Shown: positions 2,802 through 27,689 of the stretch, piece by piece
How positions within the stretch are numbered: position 1 is the stretch's first letter
Layout of the letters: each line of letters starts with the position of its first letter
IMG/VR virus record: IMGVR_UViG_3300044267_004151
Location: 1-27,690 of that record
Strand: one strand, 5' to 3'
Source of the DNA: a virus
Taxonomy: Duplodnaviria; Caudoviricetes
Length of the DNA: 27,690 nt
Made by a program: the position numbers and the translations under genes
The notes under the pieces: model-generated
Databases searched by the model: none
The model's input: the letters and a program-made list of their open reading frames with translations, nothing else
What the model was told of the DNA's origin: nothing

Positions 2802-4102
2802 TACTCACTCCTTAAAGCATCAAGAAGTGTTGAGCCGGCAGTCTTTGGCTTTCTTTCCTCTAAATAAGCAATCGCATCCTCTCTTGTCATATCTGGATTT
2901 CTTTCTTGTAATATATCAGCAAGGTCTTTAATACCCATTTCTAAATCATCCTTTTCTAATGCTCTTTTTTCTGTAGGTGTATATACTTCTTCCATTTCGC
3001 CAAAATCTACATTTTCTAATTCACCAATATCATAGTTCTTATGAAACTTGATTAACATCCTTTCCATTTCGTGTAATTCGTGTTCAAATGCTCTCCATCT
3101 AGAAATATCTTGCTTTCGCTTATCTCTTAATTCAACATTTCTAATTGCTAACGATATTCCAGAACTTGCTTGTTCGGATTCATCAACAAATGATGTTGAA
3201 AGATGGTAATTTTGTGCTAACATTTTATACATAGACCTAATAGAAGAATCTATACTTTGCGAAGTATCCGGAGGTGTCAATATTTCTAAAGATGAATCAA
3301 TTTCTATTCTAGTTATAATGTCCGGTGCTATTGCTAAATGATCATTCTGCATTTCACCTTTTGCAACCAAATACCCGAAAGATTGGAATTTTTGATTCTG
3401 ATGCTTTGTTGTCATTAAATCAATTATTTTTAAATGCCCTCTAATTAGGTCTTGTGAAGCAGTTGTATCCAGATAGAAGGTATCTGGTCTGCCATCACGA
3501 AATACGGGGATTAAAGGCATTTTTTCGTAGAAATTCAACCCTTCTGGATTGTATTCGTCAAACATTTTTTGATTACTATTAATTTTAAATTGAAATGCTT
3601 CTGAATCAGACCAATATTGCCAAGTTTCTTCACTGTCATCATATACACTTGACCTAGTAGCAAGAGGGAAAGAAAACGCAGTAGGCTTTAATGGATCATC
3701 ACCTTCAAATTCCGGCTCAAAATCATATATAATATCATACTCTACTCTATCATTCCTCCAACAAGGTTTAATTATAACAAGTTCCAAAAGATTGACAAGT
3801 CTTTCAAATCTTTGTAGGCGATGATTTTTATTTGGGTGTAAGTATTCTTCATACTTTGAACTTGCCACTGTTCTTTTTGGTGGTTCCATATAGCATAAGG
3901 AAATTCTATCTATAACTCTTTTAGTAATGTTACTTGAACAGGGTGTCATCTTATCAGACTTTGAACCAATGTATTCACCCATTACATATTCATCTGTATT
4001 GCCGTTATAATAATCCAATGCTTCCAACCTTTTTTGTAGCCATACTTCCTTTTCTTGTTGTTGTGCATCGTGTCTGCTTTTTAGTACGATTGATTTGCTC
4101 AT
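2801..4102 (-). CDS. Portal protein (SPP1 gp6-like)
   Basis: 433 aa directly after TerL; LDYYNG, NITKRVID and ASSGISL motifs. Confidence 0.88.
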   Translation of the reverse strand: MSKSIVLKSRHDAQQQEKEVWLQKRLEALDYYNGNTDEYVMGEYIGSKSDKMTPCSSNITKRVIDRISLCYMEPPKRTVASSKYEEYLHPNKNHRLQRFERLVNLLELVIIKPCWRNDRVEYDIIYDFEPEFEGDDPLKPTAFSFPLATRSSVYDDSEETWQYWSDSEAFQFKINSNQKMFDEYNPEGLNFYEKMPLIPVFRDGRPDTFYLDTTASQDLIRGHLKIIDLMTTKHQNQKFQSFGYLVAKGEMQNDHLAIAPDIITRIEIDSSLEILTPPDTSQSIDSSIRSMYKMLAQNYHLSTSFVDESEQASSGISLAIRNVELRDKRKQDISRWRAFEHELHEMERMLIKFHKNYDIGELENVDFGEMEEVYTPTEKRALEKDDLEMGIKDLADILQERNPDMTREDAIAYLEERKPKTAGSTLLDALRSE

Positions 4103-5355
4103 CTCGGTAATGCCCTCACATTATTTTTATGGATTCTTGATTTAAACATAGACCAAACGGAATATCCAAATCCGTCTGATGCGTGTGTTAATTCTTTGTT
4201 ACTCTTGTCTATATCTGCTCTCGTTCCTTCCCGATTTATAACTTGCTCAAAATCCTTAATTAATACCTTACATTTGGGATCAACTATTGTACTTCTAAGC
4301 ATTCTATTTGTTAAATTAACTCTTTCAATTACTGGTATTGCTCTCCTCTCTGCTCTTACATCAAAACCTTCATCTCTTAATATTTGGTGGTCTGACCTCC
4401 TAGAACTTGTAGACCTATTCCGACCAGCAGGGTCTGGTATACAGATATACTGATTGTTCGGATATCTTGATTTTATTTCTCTCGCCATTCTTTCTGTCAA
4501 GAGTTCCCCTTCCCCTGCGTGACGCAACACGACCTCGTCAATGACACGAATTTTGGGATCATTATTGTATTGTTGCCATAGTATTGATACACTAGGGGAA
4601 ACATTGAAGTCTTGTCCAATGACAATGGGTAATTCAGAATTATACTTATTTTTTTTGACATAATCTCTATTCCACATATAGTATGTTTGTTGTGAACCGA
4701 ATATATGACAGAACTCCCCATTTAAATATGCCTTCTGGAGTTGTTCATCATAATTCATTTTTAAACTTTCAATAAACTCTGAAGGCAACGACTTGTTATC
4801 CATTGTCCTTCCTTGGATTAATTCATACCCATCTTTGGGGTCTGATTTCCAAGTTTCATACACCCAACCAAAACCCTCCGGAGTGGTTGTTATGAATGCT
4901 TGTAAACTATTACCTTCCCTCAACCTTGATAACAACATAAACCAAGCACTGTTATCTTTAAGTAAATCTGCTTCATCTAATCCTCCGGCACTAAGATTCA
5001 AGCCTGCCCACCTTCTATTGTTTTCTGCTGACCTTAAAATTATATCAGCATACCCAAACTCTCCCTCTCCCCATCTTACAGTATACCTTAAATCAGAAGC
5101 AGTATAATCAAAATCCCAGTTTGCTTCCTCTAACATTTTTTCAAGTGTTGGTTGAAGCACATCCTTAATCATTGGGTAGGTTGGTTCTGCTAGTAATATC
5201 AACCCTCCCGGATTTAAACCACACTGACGCATACCCATTAGAACGAAAGCAGTAGTTTTCCCACTCCCATATCCGGCAACCAGAGCAGGATACTTCGCAT
5301 TTGATCTTATAAAAAGATTCTGATGCTTGTATACATTAAATCTCGTTGAGTTCAA
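4099..5355 (-). CDS. terL: Terminase large subunit
   Basis: Walker A AGYGSGKT, Walker B GLDEA, motif III TTTPEG, nuclease motifs GQDFN and HASDGFGY. Confidence 0.96.
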   Translation of the reverse strand: MNSTRFNVYKHQNLFIRSNAKYPALVAGYGSGKTTAFVLMGMRQCGLNPGGLILLAEPTYPMIKDVLQPTLEKMLEEANWDFDYTASDLRYTVRWGEGEFGYADIILRSAENNRRWAGLNLSAGGLDEADLLKDNSAWFMLLSRLREGNSLQAFITTTPEGFGWVYETWKSDPKDGYELIQGRTMDNKSLPSEFIESLKMNYDEQLQKAYLNGEFCHIFGSQQTYYMWNRDYVKKNKYNSELPIVIGQDFNVSPSVSILWQQYNNDPKIRVIDEVVLRHAGEGELLTERMAREIKSRYPNNQYICIPDPAGRNRSTSSRRSDHQILRDEGFDVRAERRAIPVIERVNLTNRMLRSTIVDPKCKVLIKDFEQVINREGTRADIDKSNKELTHASDGFGYSVWSMFKSRIHKNNVRALPR

Positions 5356-5659
5356 ATCCTATTGGTCGTTCTTTTGTAGTCGTTTCAATTTTCTGTGCCG
5401 GCCTACCTTCCATTCGGTCTGCAATAAACTGAACTGCCCACGACCTACCCTCTAATGCGTAAGAATATACCATTCTCATTACTACTTCAAGTTTTGGGAT
5501 TCCATCCTTTGTACCTTCTTCTTCCCCTATCTTTCTCAAGATATCTGGAATAGACTTAACTCCCTTCGGTCTACCCTTTCCTACTGAAGCAGTATTTCCG
5601 GCTACAAACCTTCCATTTGAACTCCGATTACTTCCGTTTTTAATCGGCTCTTTACTCAT
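5336..5659 (-). CDS. terS: Terminase small subunit (DUF5681-like); start likely at 5659 rather than 5722
   Basis: MSKEP...NGRFVAGN...GRPKG and DRMEGRP motifs; upstream of TerL. The ATG at 5659 overlaps the end of the TET gene. Confidence 0.75.
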   Translation of the reverse strand: MSKEPIKNGSNRSSNGRFVAGNTASVGKGRPKGVKSIPDILRKIGEEEGTKDGIPKLEVVMRMVYSYALEGRSWAVQFIADRMEGRPAQKIETTTKERPIGFELNEI

Positions 5660-6455
5660 ACTTTTCAAATCCTTTGACTGCATAAAATATATGCGTATTT
5701 CTAAACGACCTATCATCATCAAGATAAATTGGCGTAACTCCGTGTATATTCCTCCAAGCCGGATACACGCATAAGGAATTGTCAGACATTTCTATTGTAG
5801 CATTATAATCCGGTATATGTAAATGTCCACCTTTGGAGTTCAATCTTTTTGTAAAAATCATATTTAATGCACCCTTAATATTACCTCTATCAAGATGGAA
5901 GGGTGCTGATATATTATAATTTGATATACTTCCAGTAAATAAATTTGCAAACCTCCATTTACTCGGTACTTTATCTATTAATCTTTTTTGTTCTTTATAT
6001 GCTTCCGGCATTAATTTTTTAATAATTTTTTCACCTTCCAAGCAAGCCATTAACATACCTTTAATATAATTCTTAGACTTTGCTTCTTGATGAACTGCAC
6101 TCCGTCTTGGGAAAAATCTTTTCATATGGGGTTTTGCCATTATACTTCCCAATATTGTACTCATCTGAATTGTCTGTGTAGCCTTTGCTTGTTTTCTTGT
6201 CAATCCTTCTTTATACACTGCTGAGAATACATCGCTTCTTTCTAATAAAGATTTTGGAACATTTTTACTACGAAACTCTATATCTATCAAATCCAATAAC
6301 TTTCTTAATTTACCTTTTAAGTTTGTCTTATAAAATCCAATAATATTTCCATTTTCTGTAAAGTAAGTATCATCTACTATATTGGGTGTAAAATGTTCAC
6401 ACCGGTTTCCAACTTTGTATGGATGTTTAATATTTTTTAATTCAAGCGATTTCAT
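5652..6455 (-). CDS. TET/JBP-family 2OG-Fe(II) dioxygenase
   Basis: FTGSISNYN, HxD motif (PFHLDRGN), GG-x-L, HGVTP distal His and R-x5-Y (RNTHIFY) 2OG-binding strand; adjacent to a glycosyltransferase. Confidence 0.85.
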   Translation of the reverse strand: MKSLELKNIKHPYKVGNRCEHFTPNIVDDTYFTENGNIIGFYKTNLKGKLRKLLDLIDIEFRSKNVPKSLLERSDVFSAVYKEGLTRKQAKATQTIQMSTILGSIMAKPHMKRFFPRRSAVHQEAKSKNYIKGMLMACLEGEKIIKKLMPEAYKEQKRLIDKVPSKWRFANLFTGSISNYNISAPFHLDRGNIKGALNMIFTKRLNSKGGHLHIPDYNATIEMSDNSLCVYPAWRNIHGVTPIYLDDDRSFRNTHIFYAVKGFEKYE

Positions 6456-7194
6456 TTACTTTTTTATTATAATAATTTGCTATACCTTTTATATCAACCT
6501 TTGTGTCTATTCTTCCACTCTTTTTGATTAGCCTTGTGTATGGTCGCCATTCTTTATGTAGCCTTTCAGCATAGACTGCATCAGTTTTGTTTTTATATAA
6601 ATCAAACAATCCTCCCTTATTGCTACCAACATTTGGACATCTGAACCAATACTTATTAAACCTCATTACTCCGTGACCATTCTTAATTGTTTTTAATGTA
6701 AAATTTCTATCTGACTTTAATTTCCAGTCGCCAAAATCCCAAGAAATGTTTTCCAAGTCTAGCATTACACAACAATCAACGAATTTACTATTAATTGAAT
6801 ATCTATTTTTTTCACTCCAAGCAAACTGACAATAATTTATACCGTATAATTCAAATGGTAATTTCTGTGCTTTTAAATAAATATCCTCCCATATCTCAGC
6901 ACCAGTTGTTATGCTTTTCCCATCCTTAACTATTCCAAAGTTCTGTATATCATCATCTGAAATAATTACCCATTTATAATTGTTATTTTTTGACCAATCC
7001 ATTACATAATTTCTCATATATGATATGCCTTGATCATTTTTATCTATAGAAACTTTATTGGGAACCTCATATTCCTTATACTCTTGTGGCTCTATAAAAT
7101 GATGTACTGGGAACAGACCTTCAAACAATTTGTATGTTCTTGTTTTTTTTCTATTTTTTGTTCCTATACAGACAACTATATCACTACCGACCAT
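6442..7194 (-). CDS. TET-associated glycosyltransferase (TAGT / GREB1-like GT-A fold)
   Basis: I-x-T-K-x-R N-terminus, EPQEY..Y, G...RN, DDD metal-binding motif and GSNKGG; between the ParB-N and TET genes. Confidence 0.8.
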   Translation of the reverse strand: MVGSDIVVCIGTKNRKKTRTYKLFEGLFPVHHFIEPQEYKEYEVPNKVSIDKNDQGISYMRNYVMDWSKNNNYKWVIISDDDIQNFGIVKDGKSITTGAEIWEDIYLKAQKLPFELYGINYCQFAWSEKNRYSINSKFVDCCVMLDLENISWDFGDWKLKSDRNFTLKTIKNGHGVMRFNKYWFRCPNVGSNKGGLFDLYKNKTDAVYAERLHKEWRPYTRLIKKSGRIDTKVDIKGIANYYNKKVNEIA

Positions 7195-7195
7195 A

Positions 7196-7789
7196 CTACT
7201 TCTCTTTCAATTTCTGTTTGAAAAATCTTAAAACCTCTCCACCCATATATCCAAATTTACCATTCAAAGTTTGATATATTTTTACTGCTTCATCATAATC
7301 TTCTAAATTAAATTCTACTAATATTGATTTTCTTGTTCCTTTACGCATATCATCCACCAAATCAGAAACATCATCATCTTCTAAAATTGAATAATCAACC
7401 TCATCAAACAATCCAAGTAATGACTTTTCACTAAATCCCCAGTCTTTTAATTCTTCTACATCAAAAAAATTAGCAAGAGCATCATAATCCCATCCACCAA
7501 TATTCTTATTTAACCTTATATTCAATTCCTTTTCTTTCTCAAGGGATAGATTGACCTCCACACAAGGAACAGTATCTATCTTTAAATCTTTTGCAACTAA
7601 CAATCTTTGATGACCACCCACAACAATATTCTTTCTTTCATTGTGGCGATTCACTATTATTGGATCAACAAGCCCGAATCGCTTAATGCTATCCTTTAAT
7701 TGATTGTACTGTTCTTTCGTTAATTGCCTTGGATTGTATTCGGCAGATATTAGGTCTTTTGATAGATATTGGACTATTTTCATATTCAT
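7196..7789 (-). CDS. ParB/Srx N-terminal-domain protein
   Basis: YNPRQ, LKDSIKRFGLVDPIIVN, GGHQR, LNIRLNK and G.WD motifs. Confidence 0.9.
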   Translation of the reverse strand: MNMKIVQYLSKDLISAEYNPRQLTKEQYNQLKDSIKRFGLVDPIIVNRHNERKNIVVGGHQRLLVAKDLKIDTVPCVEVNLSLEKEKELNIRLNKNIGGWDYDALANFFDVEELKDWGFSEKSLLGLFDEVDYSILEDDDVSDLVDDMRKGTRKSILVEFNLEDYDEAVKIYQTLNGKFGYMGGEVLRFFKQKLKEK

Positions 7790-7799
7790 TTTTACCTCG

Positions 7800-7847
7800 A
7801 TTTTAATAATATGTTGTGTTATGATATTAGTTACTTATCGGTAACCT
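7800..7847 (-). promoter_or_regulatory. Putative activator-dependent late promoter, copy 2 (drives the ParB-GT-TET-terminase operon)
   Basis: Same 24-bp box (7824-7847) with TAAAAT 18 nt downstream (7805-7800). Confidence 0.75.
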
Positions 7848-7854
7848 TACTTAA

Positions 7855-8142
7855 TTACTTAAATTTTGTATTATCAGATATTATTCTTTTGATATTTTCT
7901 TCTGATGTGTGATACAATTCTTTTATATACTTTATTTTTTTATCAAATGAAAACTCAAAGTGTGACATAGTCTCCCACCTAATTCTAATATCCATATTTC
8001 TTATACTTATTTCATCATTATTCCTAAAGGGGTAATACGGCACTTGTGGAATTAATCTAATATTTTTTAATTCCATTTCATTCTCAACATCCAACCAGAC
8101 CAGAGGTTTCTTTATTTTTTTCATAGATTCTCCATTATTCAA
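7855..8142 (-). CDS. Putative Mor/C-like late transcription activator
   Basis: IRNMDIR...IKELYHTSEENIKRII resembles the Mor-family C-terminal HTH. It is the last early gene and abuts the dyad box. Confidence 0.55.
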   Translation of the reverse strand: MNNGESMKKIKKPLVWLDVENEMELKNIRLIPQVPYYPFRNNDEISIRNMDIRIRWETMSHFEFSFDKKIKYIKELYHTSEENIKRIISDNTKFK

Positions 8143-8186
8143 TTATCCTCTCCCCAGTTTTTCTATTTACTCTAACGAACATTAAT

Positions 8187-8381
8187 TCAATCTCCCAATC
8201 GTCTGAAAACACTCGTTCCGGCTTCTCTTTTAAGACATTTTTTACACAAAGCCTTCCAGATTTTTGGAACATACTCTGGAACATACTGAGGACTTTGGTA
8301 AGTATATTGGTCCGTTTTTTTTGTTGAGCCACATTGTTCACAAGTAAATAATTTTTTCCCTAAATTTTTTGCAAAGTTCAC
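8187..8381 (-). CDS. Small zinc-ribbon protein
   Basis: CEQC and CKKC pairs; GTG start. Confidence 0.65.
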   Translation of the reverse strand: MNFAKNLGKKLFTCEQCGSTKKTDQYTYQSPQYVPEYVPKIWKALCKKCLKREAGTSVFRRLGD

Positions 8382-8528
8382 CTTCTATCACCGATAGATT
8401 TTAATTGTGTCCGTCATATATCCTTGGTGAGTTTATGCTCTCTCTTTTCTTCTAACAGTTCAGCCAATAAACTCTCAGCAATACTTTGCCAATCTATAAT
8501 ACTTTTATTCCTAATACAACTACCTTTA

Positions 8529-9041
8529 CTATTCTACTTCTTTAAGATATTTTTGAATAGACTTAGTATAAATCAGTACCTTTTCTAAATTACTATTACG
8601 CTTAACACTTTTCAATTGCCCAGTATTTATTCTTCTTTTTATTGTTGATGCAGACAATCCTAAAACCATTGTTGCTTCAGTTAGTGTTAATACCGGTCTA
8701 TCCATTAAATTATATCCAAAACTTCGGCTAGTGCTACTTCGTTTCTCGGTATCCATAGTCCGACCACTAGCCTTGCTTCCCGAATTACGGGATTCCAAAT
8801 CTAACCGATCACAGAGTTCAGCAAATTTTCTATCAAGCCGTATACATACATACTCAAGTTTGTCAACTTTATTAGAATATTCACCAATTATTGCTTCCCA
8901 TTCAACTGGAGGATGCGAGTTTTCTTCTAAATTTATAATTCTTTCTTTTAATGTTTCTATTTCCTTTACTCTTTCTTTTAATATTTCTAAAATCTTAGGG
9001 ATGTAGGTAAATACTTCTTCAACTTGACTAAATGTTGCCAT
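8529..9041 (-). CDS. Coiled-coil protein with a C-terminal HTH_17 (excisionase/MerR-like) DNA-binding domain
   Basis: LTLTEATMVLGLSASTIKRRINTGQLKS. Confidence 0.75.
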   Translation of the reverse strand: MATFSQVEEVFTYIPKILEILKERVKEIETLKERIINLEENSHPPVEWEAIIGEYSNKVDKLEYVCIRLDRKFAELCDRLDLESRNSGSKASGRTMDTEKRSSTSRSFGYNLMDRPVLTLTEATMVLGLSASTIKRRINTGQLKSVKRNSNLEKVLIYTKSIQKYLKEVE

Positions 9042-9580
9042 TATAATTTCCTCGCTATCGGTTCTATTGACCAGTGAACTTGGTCAAGTTTTAATCTTAC
9101 TTCTTCTTTATAGTACTCGTCTTTATATTTTGGATGAACCTCAACCTTCCAATTATCTACATCAATAGAATATACCTTATAAATAATTGCTTCACCTTTA
9201 TCTATATTAGGCTTAACAAACCAGTACTCATTAGGTCTTTTATTTTCATTATGATGTGATTTTTTATTGACAGACAATAAATTTTTTGATAAAGAACATT
9301 TTACATCAATAGAATTTTCATTTATCAATATATCCGGCTCTGCAACCGGTCTTTTCTCAATCAAAGAAGCACCTACAAAATTAATATTATTTTCCTCTAA
9401 ATAATGTCTTGCAATTAATTCGCCAAAAATACCCATCGTTGAAGTATAATTTTCACTCTTACCTCTATACCTTGCAGTGCCTTTACTATATATATTAGAA
9501 CTTAAATTGCTTCTAACAATAGCCAGTTCCTCTGATATTGAGTATAATACCTTGGGATATGTTATACTATCTACCCTCAA
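9041..9580 (-). CDS. PD-(D/E)xK nuclease-fold protein
   Basis: G.FGE helix, PD and IDVK catalytic pattern. Confidence 0.65.
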   Translation of the reverse strand: MRVDSITYPKVLYSISEELAIVRSNLSSNIYSKGTARYRGKSENYTSTMGIFGELIARHYLEENNINFVGASLIEKRPVAEPDILINENSIDVKCSLSKNLLSVNKKSHHNENKRPNEYWFVKPNIDKGEAIIYKVYSIDVDNWKVEVHPKYKDEYYKEEVRLKLDQVHWSIEPIARKL

Positions 9581-14765: not shown

Positions 14766-15140
14766 TTAACTAATCCCTTTCGTTTAATGTATTATTATTA
14801 TTATTAATCACGCATTAATTTAAAAATAATATAACTTAAAACCAAAGATAATAATATATATATATACTTTTTATGTAATTATTATACGGAATAATACTTT
14901 TTATAAGTAGTATTATTATCTTGAATTATTATACAATGCAAGAAAAAAGAGATTTTTTCTACTGATGAGTAGATTTTTTCTACTGATGAGTAGATTTTTT
15001 CTACTAATACACATTACAATGCAAGAAAAAAGGGAATTATTCTCTTTTTTTATAAAAGGAATGAGAAAATTTAGTTCTCATTCTTTGTAGCAAATGAATG
15101 TTTTTTATGTTCATTTGTTAATATAAGTTTAAATACCATT
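14766..15140. promoter_or_regulatory. AT-rich non-coding control region (early promoter(s), repeats)
   Basis: Largest intergenic gap, very AT-rich, between the late terminator and the first early gene; contains direct and inverted repeats. Confidence 0.7.
14950..15005 (+). repeat. 21-bp tandem dyad repeat AGATTTTTTCTACTGATGAGT x2.7
   Basis: Units start at 14950, 14971 and 14992; flanked by the 18-bp direct repeat TACAATGCAAGAAAAAAG (14932-14949 and 15015-15032). Confidence 0.9.
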
Positions 15141-15142
15141 AT

Positions 15143-15173
15143 AAAAAGACAAACCCTCGCAAAAGCAAGGGTT
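15143..15173 (-). terminator. Rho-independent terminator of the late operon
   Basis: Minus strand AACCCTTGC-TTTT-GCGAGGGTT followed by TGTCTTTTT, downstream of the last tail gene. Confidence 0.75.
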
Positions 15174-15218
15174 CATCTTGTCGGGAGTTAGCAACGAATG
15201 GAGGAGAGTAACTCGCTA

Positions 15219-21091: not shown

Positions 21092-22117
21092 TTACATTGT
21101 TAATCTTAATATTTTTGATGAAGAACCCAACACTCTAGCACCCTTTACTGTTACTGAATTTCTTAATTCTGGATTACCAGTATCAACAGAATGTTCAGTT
21201 GTCCTTCCGTAAACATATACATTCCAAAGACTATTATTCCCAACTGCCATAACATTGTTTCCAGAATAATTTTTAGCACCAGTATTGTCAAAATTTTCAT
21301 CTCTTTTATAGGTTACATTACCTATTATTTCCCAAGCACCATTCATTATATACCCATCCGGGTCTTTTGAACCTCCGTGCCATCCCACTCTTTCAATATT
21401 CCTCTGAACTGAAACAGAATAAGAGTATGGGTGAATTTCATATCCAGCACTACTAGATGATAGGTATGTTCCGGCACTTGTCCAGTCTCTGAAGTTAGGT
21501 GCAGTTCCCCAAGTACTTGTATATGTATTATCACCGTCAGTCATATCATCTGTATAAGAGGTATCATACCCAGTTACAAATGTCATTTCCACTATCGGTA
21601 AACCACCCTCAGAATCTATTGCGTGATTTAATACCATTGAAGTAGCAACACACCCTTTGTATACAATATCTTTTTTTACAGAAGCACTTGCAGTTTCGTA
21701 TCCACCACCACCAATATGAATACAAGCAGATTTACCATACCCTGCCGTAGCCATTACTGCATTATGTTCAAACTTTGGTGCTGAATACTGCCCAGTTATT
21801 TGATTGTCGCCATCATTATCCTCAAATAAGTATCCACACATCATATCTAATACGACTGGAGTGCATATCGCTGAAAATGATATTTCATACATCTCACTCG
21901 AAGAATCATAAGCAGTTGCATCTATTTCAATGCTCTTTTGCCCTTGAAGAACTGGAGATTCTGCGACTGATGCCTTTATGTCTACTATTGTCGGAGGACT
22001 AATTAATGGTATTTCATAAGCAGTTGCCGAACCTATGGTTGAACTGCCCATATTAGTTTCCTCAAAAATACCTAATCTTAAATCCTTTGAACTCTTTAAT
22101 TGTGTACCTACTGCCAT
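21092..22117 (-). CDS. Tail tube / major tail protein, paralog 2
   Basis: Position upstream of the chaperone; E...G N-terminus, YKGC strand; homologous to 22133..23368. Confidence 0.7.
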   Translation of the reverse strand: MAVGTQLKSSKDLRLGIFEETNMGSSTIGSATAYEIPLISPPTIVDIKASVAESPVLQGQKSIEIDATAYDSSSEMYEISFSAICTPVVLDMMCGYLFEDNDGDNQITGQYSAPKFEHNAVMATAGYGKSACIHIGGGGYETASASVKKDIVYKGCVATSMVLNHAIDSEGGLPIVEMTFVTGYDTSYTDDMTDGDNTYTSTWGTAPNFRDWTSAGTYLSSSSAGYEIHPYSYSVSVQRNIERVGWHGGSKDPDGYIMNGAWEIIGNVTYKRDENFDNTGAKNYSGNNVMAVGNNSLWNVYVYGRTTEHSVDTGNPELRNSVTVKGARVLGSSSKILRLTM

Positions 22118-22132
22118 CTAACTATCTCCTTA

Positions 22133-23368
22133 TTAAAAGTCTATGTTTACTATGTTATTAGAATCTGAATGTAAAGTCCAAGTTTCAGAATTATATGTCT
22201 CTGCAACATAATTAACGGCAGTTGCGAACCTATCATTTTCAATATGCGTTACAATATGGTCTGCATTGTATGTTCCTTCAGAAGCACCTGCTATTGTAAC
22301 CTTCTGACCTACACCTAATCCGTGACCACTTGAAGTAAACCAAGTATCTGAATTGTCGCCTGCTGGACCATTTGCAAATACAGTGACGGCACCGGTTGCT
22401 CTATGATTTCCAGTACCAGTATATGAATATGTTGCCCTCATATCTGCACTTCCAGTATCTACACTGCAATCATTCATCTTTCCGTTCAATCTAACATCAT
22501 AACCAGTTCCGGACACTTTAAATCCAGATATTTTATTATTACGCAAATAATCATCAAAATTTAATTGATTTGCATCGTGCTTGATTGTTATAGAGCCTTC
22601 AACTGAATGGTTGCCCACCTGCAAATATCCAAGTGGGTTGTTACTACCATCATATCCAACTCTCTGTATATCCCTTGAAACATTTAATGTATATCCATAC
22701 GCTCTACAATCATAATTAGAACTGCCTGCCGTTTCACCAATCCAGCGACCATTAACACAATCAAGGTCTACAAAATGTTGAGCCACCTCACTATAATGAG
22801 CCGTAGGACTTCCTGCTGAAGCAATATTAGATAAAGCAACCGGATAAGCAGTTACCCAAGTCAATGTCATTATTGGGAAGCCACCATTAGAATCTATCGA
22901 ATGAGCAACTTCTACACTTTTAAGGATACATCCTTTAAATAATAAATCATTATTTGGTGTAGCAAAGTCATATCCTGCACCCTTAACCAGTATCACTTGA
23001 GATGAATTATTTGCAACAGTAGCACCGGCATCCAAATTTGGCTGAGTGTAGGCACTCGAACTTAGGTAAACTTGCCCACCAAGTAAACCTTTACCAGAAT
23101 ATGTCATAGCATCAGCAGTAGCCAAAACTTGAACACTAATTTCCCATAAAGCATTGTCCAACCTTTGCTTTGATTGGTTATGGTCAAGAAAATATTTTCC
23201 AGTCCTTTCAGAACCTACATCTAAAGGCACATTCCCAATATTAATAGAAGGTGGTGCTATTGCATTTAGTAAATGGTATGTACTACTTGTTCCAGCACCT
23301 ACAGTTGCTTCATCGCCTATTACAAATTCAATTTCTTGCGATATTTTAAAATTCTTACTTATTGCCAT
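22133..23368 (-). CDS. Tail tube / major tail protein, paralog 1, with an extra C-terminal beta domain
   Basis: FKGC...HSIDSNGG motif; C-terminal GHGLGVGQKVTIAG module. Confidence 0.7.
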   Translation of the reverse strand: MAISKNFKISQEIEFVIGDEATVGAGTSSTYHLLNAIAPPSINIGNVPLDVGSERTGKYFLDHNQSKQRLDNALWEISVQVLATADAMTYSGKGLLGGQVYLSSSAYTQPNLDAGATVANNSSQVILVKGAGYDFATPNNDLLFKGCILKSVEVAHSIDSNGGFPIMTLTWVTAYPVALSNIASAGSPTAHYSEVAQHFVDLDCVNGRWIGETAGSSNYDCRAYGYTLNVSRDIQRVGYDGSNNPLGYLQVGNHSVEGSITIKHDANQLNFDDYLRNNKISGFKVSGTGYDVRLNGKMNDCSVDTGSADMRATYSYTGTGNHRATGAVTVFANGPAGDNSDTWFTSSGHGLGVGQKVTIAGASEGTYNADHIVTHIENDRFATAVNYVAETYNSETWTLHSDSNNIVNIDF

Positions 23369-27662: not shown

Positions 27663-27689
27663 CATAGATCATTCCAAGAGCACCAGTAA
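27663..27689 (+). repeat. 27-bp direct terminal repeat, right copy
   Basis: Identical to 1-27. The following base differs (C at 28, T at 27690). Confidence 0.95.

Follow-up and report, generated by a model that had tools for sequence, protein, structure and literature searches.

Which base is made, and from which precursor, by the three genes that directly precede the terminase genes in the IMG/VR virus record IMGVR_UViG_3300044267_004151? This record, analysed over its whole length of 27,690 nt (27.7 kb; hereafter the window), is a tailed-phage genome of 34% GC whose annotated genes all lie on the minus strand, and the sequencing runs containing it carry seawater metagenome labels, no RNA run being listed among them. 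The genes in question encode a ParB-like helper of 197 aa (7196..7789; Pfam ParB_N, E 3e-9), a TET-associated GT-A glycosyltransferase (GT) of 250 aa (6442..7194; Pfam TAGT, E 4e-8; phrog_842, E 6e-18) and an Fe(II)/2-oxoglutarate (2OG) dioxygenase of the TET/JBP type of 267 aa (5652..6455; Pfam Tet_JBP, E 2e-8, with a score of 34.1 bits slightly below the cut-off of 34.9). A 1-nt gap separates ParB from the GT, the GT and TET genes overlap by 14 nt, and the dioxygenase stop overlaps by 8 nt the putative terminase small subunit gene terS (5336..5659, ATG at 5659; DUF5681), which in turn overlaps the large subunit gene terL (4099..5355; Pfam Terminase_6N; phrog_2, E 2e-40) by 20 nt. These coordinates and families agree with the original prediction of three packed genes upstream of, and overlapping, terS.

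We consider it probable that this ParB/GT/TET module converts thymine (T) via 5-hydroxymethyluracil (5hmU) to a sugar-capped, base-J-like base. In such a post-replicative DNA-modification scheme the dioxygenase would oxidise a subset of the thymines of phage DNA to 5hmU, likely only when paired with its ParB-like partner, and oxidation would stall at the hydroxymethyl stage, as suggested by I177 at the pocket position of TET2 T1372. A sugar taken from a host nucleoside diphosphate (NDP)-sugar would next be attached to 5hmU by the GT-A enzyme, yielding a base-J-like nucleotide. The ParB-like protein would act as a two-part device, its N-domain being of the phage lineage and its tail selecting the enzyme. 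The ParB-X-TET-terminase layout as such is common and published, and does not represent a new kind of system.

In the dioxygenase, aligned to TET2, the iron ligands (H187-x-D189...H238) and the 2OG-binding arginine (R252) are present and invariant across 43 relatives, confirming the intact HxD..H..R signature read earlier; the clade shares the motif FTGSISNYN..HxDxxN..YPAWRNxHG..R. Among the Foldseek matches of its AlphaFold model (pLDDT 89), CcTet, TET2, NgTET1 and CMD1 occupied every listed row to rank 26 (E≤1.6e-8; 1e-10 to 1e-8), other 2OG oxygenases starting only at E 1.2e-6. Because DNA-acting TETs precede all other 2OG oxygenases in these matches, the enzyme does not group with the oxygenases of non-nucleic-acid substrates, a grouping that would have spoken against the original prediction; the DNA 5-methylpyrimidine dioxygenases rank first by fold. 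The family is large, comprising 2,389 clusters at 90% identity when more distant clades are included (E≤1e-3), the best 119 of which are 52–68% identical to the window enzyme; with a profile, 1,023 representatives at 50% identity were found, of which 64 had E≤1e-30. About 1,400 stored viral stretches fit the clade patterns, and the analysis covered the best 80 of 524 confirmed ones plus two more. Two quick trees (61 and 28 rows) placed the window enzyme in a "short" clade forming one side of a branch with support 100; longer enzymes, those of actinophages included, lie near it, and the C1-type proteins stand apart. A scan with the C1-type TET of L117 (L-numbers label the compared loci and records) retrieved only L117 itself. 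The window enzyme is a member of the TET/JBP superfamily outside clades C1, C2 and A/B. As a side observation, TET/JBP genes in PHROG 6059 and in RefSeq genomes (NC_020847, NC_011044 and others) are labelled "queuine tRNA-ribosyltransferase", apparently a propagated mis-annotation.

What would such an enzyme oxidise? The original prediction started from the premise that characterised phage TETs act with a co-encoded C5-methyltransferase, which is outdated: TET89 oxidises T (as described in excerpts of Burke et al., PMC8256090), and enzymes of clades C1 and C2 convert T to 5hmU with no need of a C5-methyltransferase, C1 in a ParB-dependent manner (O'Toole et al., PNAS 2026, PMC13229309). In the latter study ParB176 raised T oxidation from ~1% to 25–35%, and among more than 23,000 mined contigs a C5-methyltransferase was present in ~6%, a GT in ~31%, a ParB in ~27% and a terminase in ~19%. 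With only ~6% of mined loci carrying one, the lack of a methyltransferase in the window is the norm rather than a surprise. That lack, claimed earlier for an apparently complete genome, was upheld: Pfam, PHROG and NCBIfam scans found no DNA methyltransferase among the window genes, PF00145 had no match at E≤1, and home-made profiles of C5 and N6/N4 methyltransferases had none in all six frames of the window. A PHROG "DNA methyltransferase" match on the ParB-like protein was discarded, as it spans only the N-terminal ParB portion of that profile. Nor did the Pfam, PHROG, NCBIfam and home-made profiles reveal a thymidylate-synthase-like gene or a second GT in the window. The genome is most likely circularly complete (~27,662 bp), since its first 27 nt recur at 27663..27689 and the capsid gene reads across the end-to-start junction (phrog_267 positions 15-249, then 249-323); the record is classed as "linear" with a CheckV completeness estimate of 86%. 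A PF00145 C5-methyltransferase was found in one of 20 related whole records (one of the 10 that are nearly complete), at a distance of 5.5 kb from the cassette; an open reading frame (ORF) of L079 flagged by the home-made C5 profile had no Pfam match and was not counted.

The gene order ParB-X-TET-terS-terL is conserved among 81 relatives, with X exchangeable: ParB is present in 58 of the 59 relatives having at least 2 kb upstream, and terL lies at most 1.6 kb away in 64 of the 67 having at least 0.9 kb downstream. Between ParB and TET we found GT-A alone (38 loci), GT-A with a second GT (3), with a HAD/kinase-like gene (3) or with a sulfotransferase (3), an FkbM O-methyltransferase (5), a P-loop kinase (3), a GATase with an amino-acid:DNA transferase (AADT) and a kinase (2), or a GT-B-like gene (2; our label, no Pfam match). 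The GATase, AADT and P-loop kinase set occurs beside dioxygenases of the same clade in L068, L070, L089 and L093, the last two from genome bins. Kinase and AADT act on 5hmU DNA, and T oxidation was already deduced for such TET loci, according to the available portions of Lee et al. (PMC8989533); the thymine conclusion for GT loci was drawn likewise in excerpts of Pyle et al. (bioRxiv 10.1101/2023.12.21.572611). Because 5hmU-type partners fill the slot held by the GT in the window, C5-methyltransferases are rare and C1/C2 enzymes act on T, thymine is most likely the substrate of the window dioxygenase, judging from gene context and analogy. Of the two products originally proposed side by side, the base-J-like glycosyl-5hmU is thus the better supported, and scavenging of host-deposited 5-methylcytosine (5mC) finds little support.

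The exchangeable slot also suggests products other than a glycosylated base. The ParB-FkbM O-methyltransferase-TET arrangement of Prochlorococcus phage P-HS2 (L083:15790-17914), L056, L063, L065, L075, L079 and L090 predicts a methoxymethyl-pyrimidine, and a sulfotransferase between GT and TET (L043:9435-9998, L053:1684-2247, L054:2315-2878) predicts a sulfated sugar on DNA. Nucleotidyltransferase and HAD/kinase-like genes beside the GT (L035:141-2337, L045:874-3067, L067:3376-5923) suggest a phage-made sugar donor, and ParB-TET pairs with no tailoring gene (L123:3544-4865, L092:9406-10792, L176:1-1744) predict free 5hmU. In L092 and L094 the ParB-TET pair lies in contigs without a nearby terminase, and a further ParB in L094 is joined to a methyltransferase-like domain. 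Among known phages, Prochlorococcus phage P-HS2/MED4-184 carries ParB-X-TET-terS-terL with a full-length dioxygenase of the same clade (43% identical), X being an FkbM O-methyltransferase, unlike in the window; Prochlorococcus phage MED4-117 is a cultured carrier. In mycobacteriophages Nigel and Cooper the corresponding genes are gp1-gp2, Nigel having ParB-TET-terS-terL with no tailoring gene, and the actinophage enzymes (Nigel/Cooper, Rhodococcus phage Tonitrus) form a sister group with a C-terminal helix that the window enzyme lacks. Literature searches for base analyses of mycobacteriophage or P-HS2 DNA found nothing relevant.

The putative GT has a GT-A fold (model pLDDT 93) with TarS/TarP as best PDB matches and TAGTs as best viral-model matches, and a motif R15...DDD80-82...D162, with S-D-R in the window where most relatives have E-D-Y/F, D162 being invariant. 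A motif R...DDD...ED is typical of phage GT-A enzymes that glycosylate 5-hydroxymethylcytosine (5hmC) and structurally resemble the trypanosome JGT, as stated in excerpts of Pyle et al. (bioRxiv 10.1101/2023.12.21.572611). In a FastTree phylogeny the window GT falls in a TET-linked subclade of 13 rows (support 97). Among pairs of loci with TETs more than 75% identical, the GTs were less than 30% identical in 66 of 92; the GT is thus freely exchanged between loci, which suggests sugar diversification. Post-replicative oxidation followed by GT-A transfer is shared with the 5mC pathway of clades A/B (C5-methyltransferase, TET43 and GTs), whose GTs have the same motif and a TarP-like fold; that pathway, as far as the available portions of PMC8256090 and bioRxiv 10.1101/2023.12.21.572611 describe it, requires a co-encoded GpC methyltransferase within five genes, and the window has none. 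The predicted route from T through 5hmU to glycosyl-5hmU is that of kinetoplastid base J (JBP1/2 and JGT), a likeness by description rather than by alignment; the kinetoplastid system is eukaryotic and has no ParB.

The ParB-like protein combines an N-terminal domain of the ParB/CTPase fold, an acidic linker and a short C-terminal strand-helix-helix, leaving no space for a DNA-binding helix-turn-helix (HTH). The four probed residues of ParB176 (N14, R16, S29, R56) are conserved in it as N19, R21, S34 and R62. Alignments assign its N-domain (residues 1-119; 7433..7789) to a phage-lineage type: it shares 73% identity with the N-domain of one ParB-N6/N4-methyltransferase fusion (L097) and 66% with that of another (L112), but only 32–37% with most TET-linked ParBs (34% with ParB176). 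The L097 phage also has the terminase closest to that of the window (terL 68–70% identity). The tail (residues 120-197; 7199..7432), only 18% identical to that of ParB176, contains a DYSIL motif (7382-7396) of the DYS[IL]L type found in 67 of 72 ParBs from TET loci, and is a candidate docking part for the dioxygenase. In pairwise statistics on related sequences, which are not independent contrasts, 39 dereplicated loci (of 56) showed a correlation between the identities of ParB tail and TET (partial rho 0.80 given terL, 0.79 given GT), a relation that the GT lying between the two did not share (rho 0.10); because this intervening gene is swapped, the tail-TET link is harder to attribute to linkage. 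The tail did not follow terL (partial rho -0.09); the N-domain did (0.41 given TET), with the intervening TET at -0.04.

The tails of 49 short pre-terminase ParBs fell into classes matching the partner enzyme: short-clade TET (11), C1 TET (3 of 4), a third TET clade (3), Mom (5 and 2), TET-less TAGTs (5 and 3) and ATPase-GNAT (2), with the short-clade L123 as an exception forming its own class. Across classes, N-domains were 70–94% identical in 92 of 1,085 ParB pairs, and ParB185 has, by eye, an N-domain of the window type joined to a C1 tail, a natural chimera. The same N-domain is also found, each time with its own tail, beside an ABC-ATPase-GNAT fusion or a Mom-family enzyme (L180:1369-2942, L183; L150:93-1441, L188:3678-4945, L194, L214, L217). 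Overall, ParB looks like a two-part adaptor with a phage-lineage N-domain and a tail matched to the partner enzyme. On the other hand, the N-domain pattern would also arise, with no terminase contact, if cassettes were simply exchanged at a breakpoint within parB. As to the proposed role of ParB-N as a loader or targeting factor, help from ParB is established for dioxygenases of another clade (PMC13229309); for the window enzyme we infer such dependence. A wider joint reading is more tentative: this abundant phage TET/JBP branch may make true base J or a sister sugar derivative, with ParB as a modular pre-terminase adaptor whose N-domain loads on phage DNA or the packaging machine and whose swappable tail recruits the enzyme, be it one of three TET clades, Mom, a TET-less GT or a GNAT-ATPase; in some cases a fused methyltransferase would stand in place of the tail.

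The original prediction also placed the cassette behind a late promoter and the modification at the time of packaging. Neither proposal gained support. The region 5000-9100 contains 22 sigma-70-like sites against 19.6 ± 5.3 in shuffled sequences, and the 65-nt AT-rich gap upstream of ParB (7790..7854, minus strand) has a GAGGT ribosome-binding site with no terminator and no promoter above chance, the sole minus-strand sigma-70-like site just upstream of ParB scoring 9/12. Co-expression of the cassette with the packaging genes is plausible from their arrangement. ParB176 activates its dioxygenase in E. coli in the absence of a terminase (PMC13229309), and in loci found through the terminase the same slot is taken by ParB-methyltransferase fusions, small C5- or N6-methyltransferases, Mom or C1-type TET-AADT-kinase sets. 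With so many unrelated modification genes in one place, the pre-terminase slot is a general home for DNA-modification genes, and a modification timed to packaging, argued from gene position, appears doubtful. A literature search for the combination of ParB, Mom, methyltransferase and terminase gave only an unrelated-looking prophage paper, and PMC12704722 contained no passage on TET, terminase or packaging.

Several observations weigh against the route from T to a base-J-like nucleotide, beginning with the distance of the window enzyme from those characterised. The closest parallel is clade C1 (5mYOX176/ParB176 and 5mYOX185/ParB185; PMC13229309), which shares the short HTH-less ParB, the TET/JBP dioxygenase and the absence of a C5-methyltransferase; L221 (3905-5378), whose proteins are by eye identical to 5mYOX176 and ParB176, occupies the same slot before terS/terL. 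However, the window dioxygenase is only 26% identical to that of L221 over 121 aa and 25–29% to four C1-type proteins over 102–121 aa, from which it is separated in distinct clades (support 100); it has HxDxxN instead of HxDxxD, its ParB differs in the tail, and its partner is a GT rather than the GATase, kinase and AADT usual for C1. It ends 9 residues past Y258 without the cysteine and helix of the C-terminal extension that 5mYOX176 requires (PMC13229309). Clade C2 (5mYOX89, 5mYOX97), often found beside GTs and likewise with no required methyltransferase, is ParB-independent with the motif FSTLTIN..TAxHxDxGD and has no ParB, unlike the window clade. Two pocket positions deserve attention. 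I177, invariant in the relatives, replaces the Thr of C1/C2 at the TET2 T1372 position, and V260, two residues past Y258 at the TET2 H1904 position, corresponds to Leu in 211 of 213 matched sequences and to Arg in C1/C2. The base is read by H1904 in TET2, and larger side chains at T1372/A212 halt oxidation at the hydroxymethyl stage; with V260 in place of Arg or His, base recognition is not readable from the sequence. Of this pocket Burke et al. (PMC8256090) state only that it may select substrates. Among characterised enzymes, several C1 pairs showed hardly any activity (PMC13229309), and those of clade D, to which TET40 and TET73 belong, were inactive or weak in excerpts of Burke et al. (PMC8256090). 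None of the tested sequences in the accessible part of Dataset S11 of PMC13229309 has the SISN or PAW motifs in place, and no short-clade member was found among tested enzymes, although the Burke 2021 and Pyle supplements may include some. This leaves room for a different clade substrate, such as an N-methylated base or an already modified pyrimidine, which we regard as very unlikely. It would accord with the hydrophobic pocket (invariant I177, V/L260 in place of the polar residue of tested enzymes), with the long branch to the clade (1.6–1.8 changes per column) and with the top fold match, CcTet, solved bound to DNA containing N6-methyladenine. CcTet and TET2 have similar Foldseek E-values, so that this top rank is not diagnostic; moreover, the sister actinophage enzymes lie beside a kinase and an aGPT-Pplase2 annotated, by prediction only, as thymidine hypermodification (PMC11955845). 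The tailoring partners speak against it as well: kinase, sulfotransferase, O-methyltransferase and GT all require a stable hydroxymethyl group. Still less probable is a module with little or no activity in this phage, carried before the terminase genes as a moron. Many of the tested C1 pairs gave <5% 5hmU (PMC13229309), and strong site avoidance persists in the window (AGCT, CCGC, CCWGG and GAATTC 0 each; CATG, ACGT and GCGC 1 each). Intact and coupled ORFs, invariant catalytic residues and the 2,389 clusters of the wider family argue otherwise.

Two further alternatives concern the GT and the oxidised base. It is unlikely, if the least improbable of the four, that 5hmU is made and the GT acts elsewhere, adding a second sugar or modifying a virion protein, a different base or a site in the DNA backbone. 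Seven of 79 terminase-found loci (L178, L179, L184, L190, L229, L232, L245) have ParB-TAGT-terS-terL without a TET, and a second TAGT type by Pfam is ParB-linked without TET in L181 and L233; as examples, these TET-less ParB and TAGT genes lie at L178:99-2138, L179:1100-2442, L181:1547-2431 and L233:8819-9661. No PF12851 match was found in the TET-less records (one of them 94% complete), the control likewise remaining without a match. Conversely, ParB-TET exists with no tailoring gene (L123, L092, phage Nigel), and in T6-like phages a TAGT is thought to add a second glucose (from the available portion of PMC13390438); this role and the TET-less TAGTs leave the GT acceptor unfixed. Yet the GTs of TET-less loci share no more than 33% identity with the TET-linked ones, form a separate group with weak support (58) and go with a different ParB tail, the window GT occupies the slot of other hydroxyl-tailoring enzymes, and the window genome has no second GT or other priming enzyme. 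Improbable too is that a host methyltransferase supplies 5mC, candidate site CCGG, for the dioxygenase to oxidise, and the GT caps 5hmC. The window has 63 CCGG against 29.7 under codon shuffles (z 7.9) and 42.7 ± 5.0 with avoided sites held fixed (11 samples); the sole similarly enriched relative among 35 TET loci of at least 9 kb (L023, 53 vs 17) also encodes a C5-methyltransferase; HxDxxN is found in TET2; and C1/C2 enzymes accept 5mC in vitro, 5mYOX97 and 5mYOX176 oxidising it about as well as T (PMC13229309). Against this, CCGG is absent from the ORFs of 26 of the same 35 loci, P-HS2 has 0 against 27 expected, CCGG is likewise abundant in the terminase kin L100 and L101, which have no TET next to terS, AADT and kinase partners within the same clade indicate T, and comparison of 26 TET+GT loci with 18 TET-less terminase kin found no enriched C-containing 2- to 4-mer beyond GACC/CCAC (uncorrected p 0.004–0.01). 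The CCGG enrichment, real in the window, is therefore not a clade trait and was rejected as a sign that host 5mC is targeted; a CCGG methylase of the host or a bias in repair may lie behind it. The T to base-J-like route remains our preferred reading.

Some further features of composition were noted. CCGG is spread evenly over the window, with 34 of 53 CCG proline codons preceding G; L093 is also rich in CCGG and GATC, and the small 222-aa C5-methyltransferase of L023 (3831-4499) is a candidate CCGG methylase. Relaxed avoidance of restriction sites, considered as a clue to the base, was not seen between the 26 TET+GT and 18 TET-less loci: the former avoid GATC, TCGA and GTAC more, and other palindromes equally, in a comparison where the loci are interrelated and the TET-less controls carry other modification genes. 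Since T-containing sites are still avoided and C1 reaches 25–35% of T at best, a sparse, context-specific modification fits, which probably does not act as a blanket shield against type II restriction. As to the rest of the genome, a contig assembled from a different run covers the segment 4910-8569 with zero differences. In the tail region, two neighbouring proteins of 341 and 411 aa (21092-22117 and 22133-23368) with similar internal motifs and no family match are possibly duplicated major tail proteins, and a ~450-nt AT-rich gap before the early genes (14766-15218) probably serves as a control or origin region. The window genome showed no integrase.

What remains new is the enzyme branch, the possible phage base J and the ParB adaptor model. 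The branch, as delineated by sequence, lies outside the tested clades, lacks the C-terminal extension and is hydrophobic at two pocket positions; of phage base J, literature searches found no published demonstration. If our preferred reading is true, this module would provide the shortest route to phage base J and proven T-dioxygenase activity would reach into a large aquatic clade whose pocket differs and whose members have no C-terminal extension. With P-HS2 as a cultured carrier, the base could be determined in DNA from virions. The mosaic of N-domain and tail offers a direct handle on how ParB activates the enzyme and why the pairs are cognate, questions left open by O'Toole et al.; the modular adaptor, if true, would explain the cognate ParB/5mYOX specificity and permit retargeting by tail swap.

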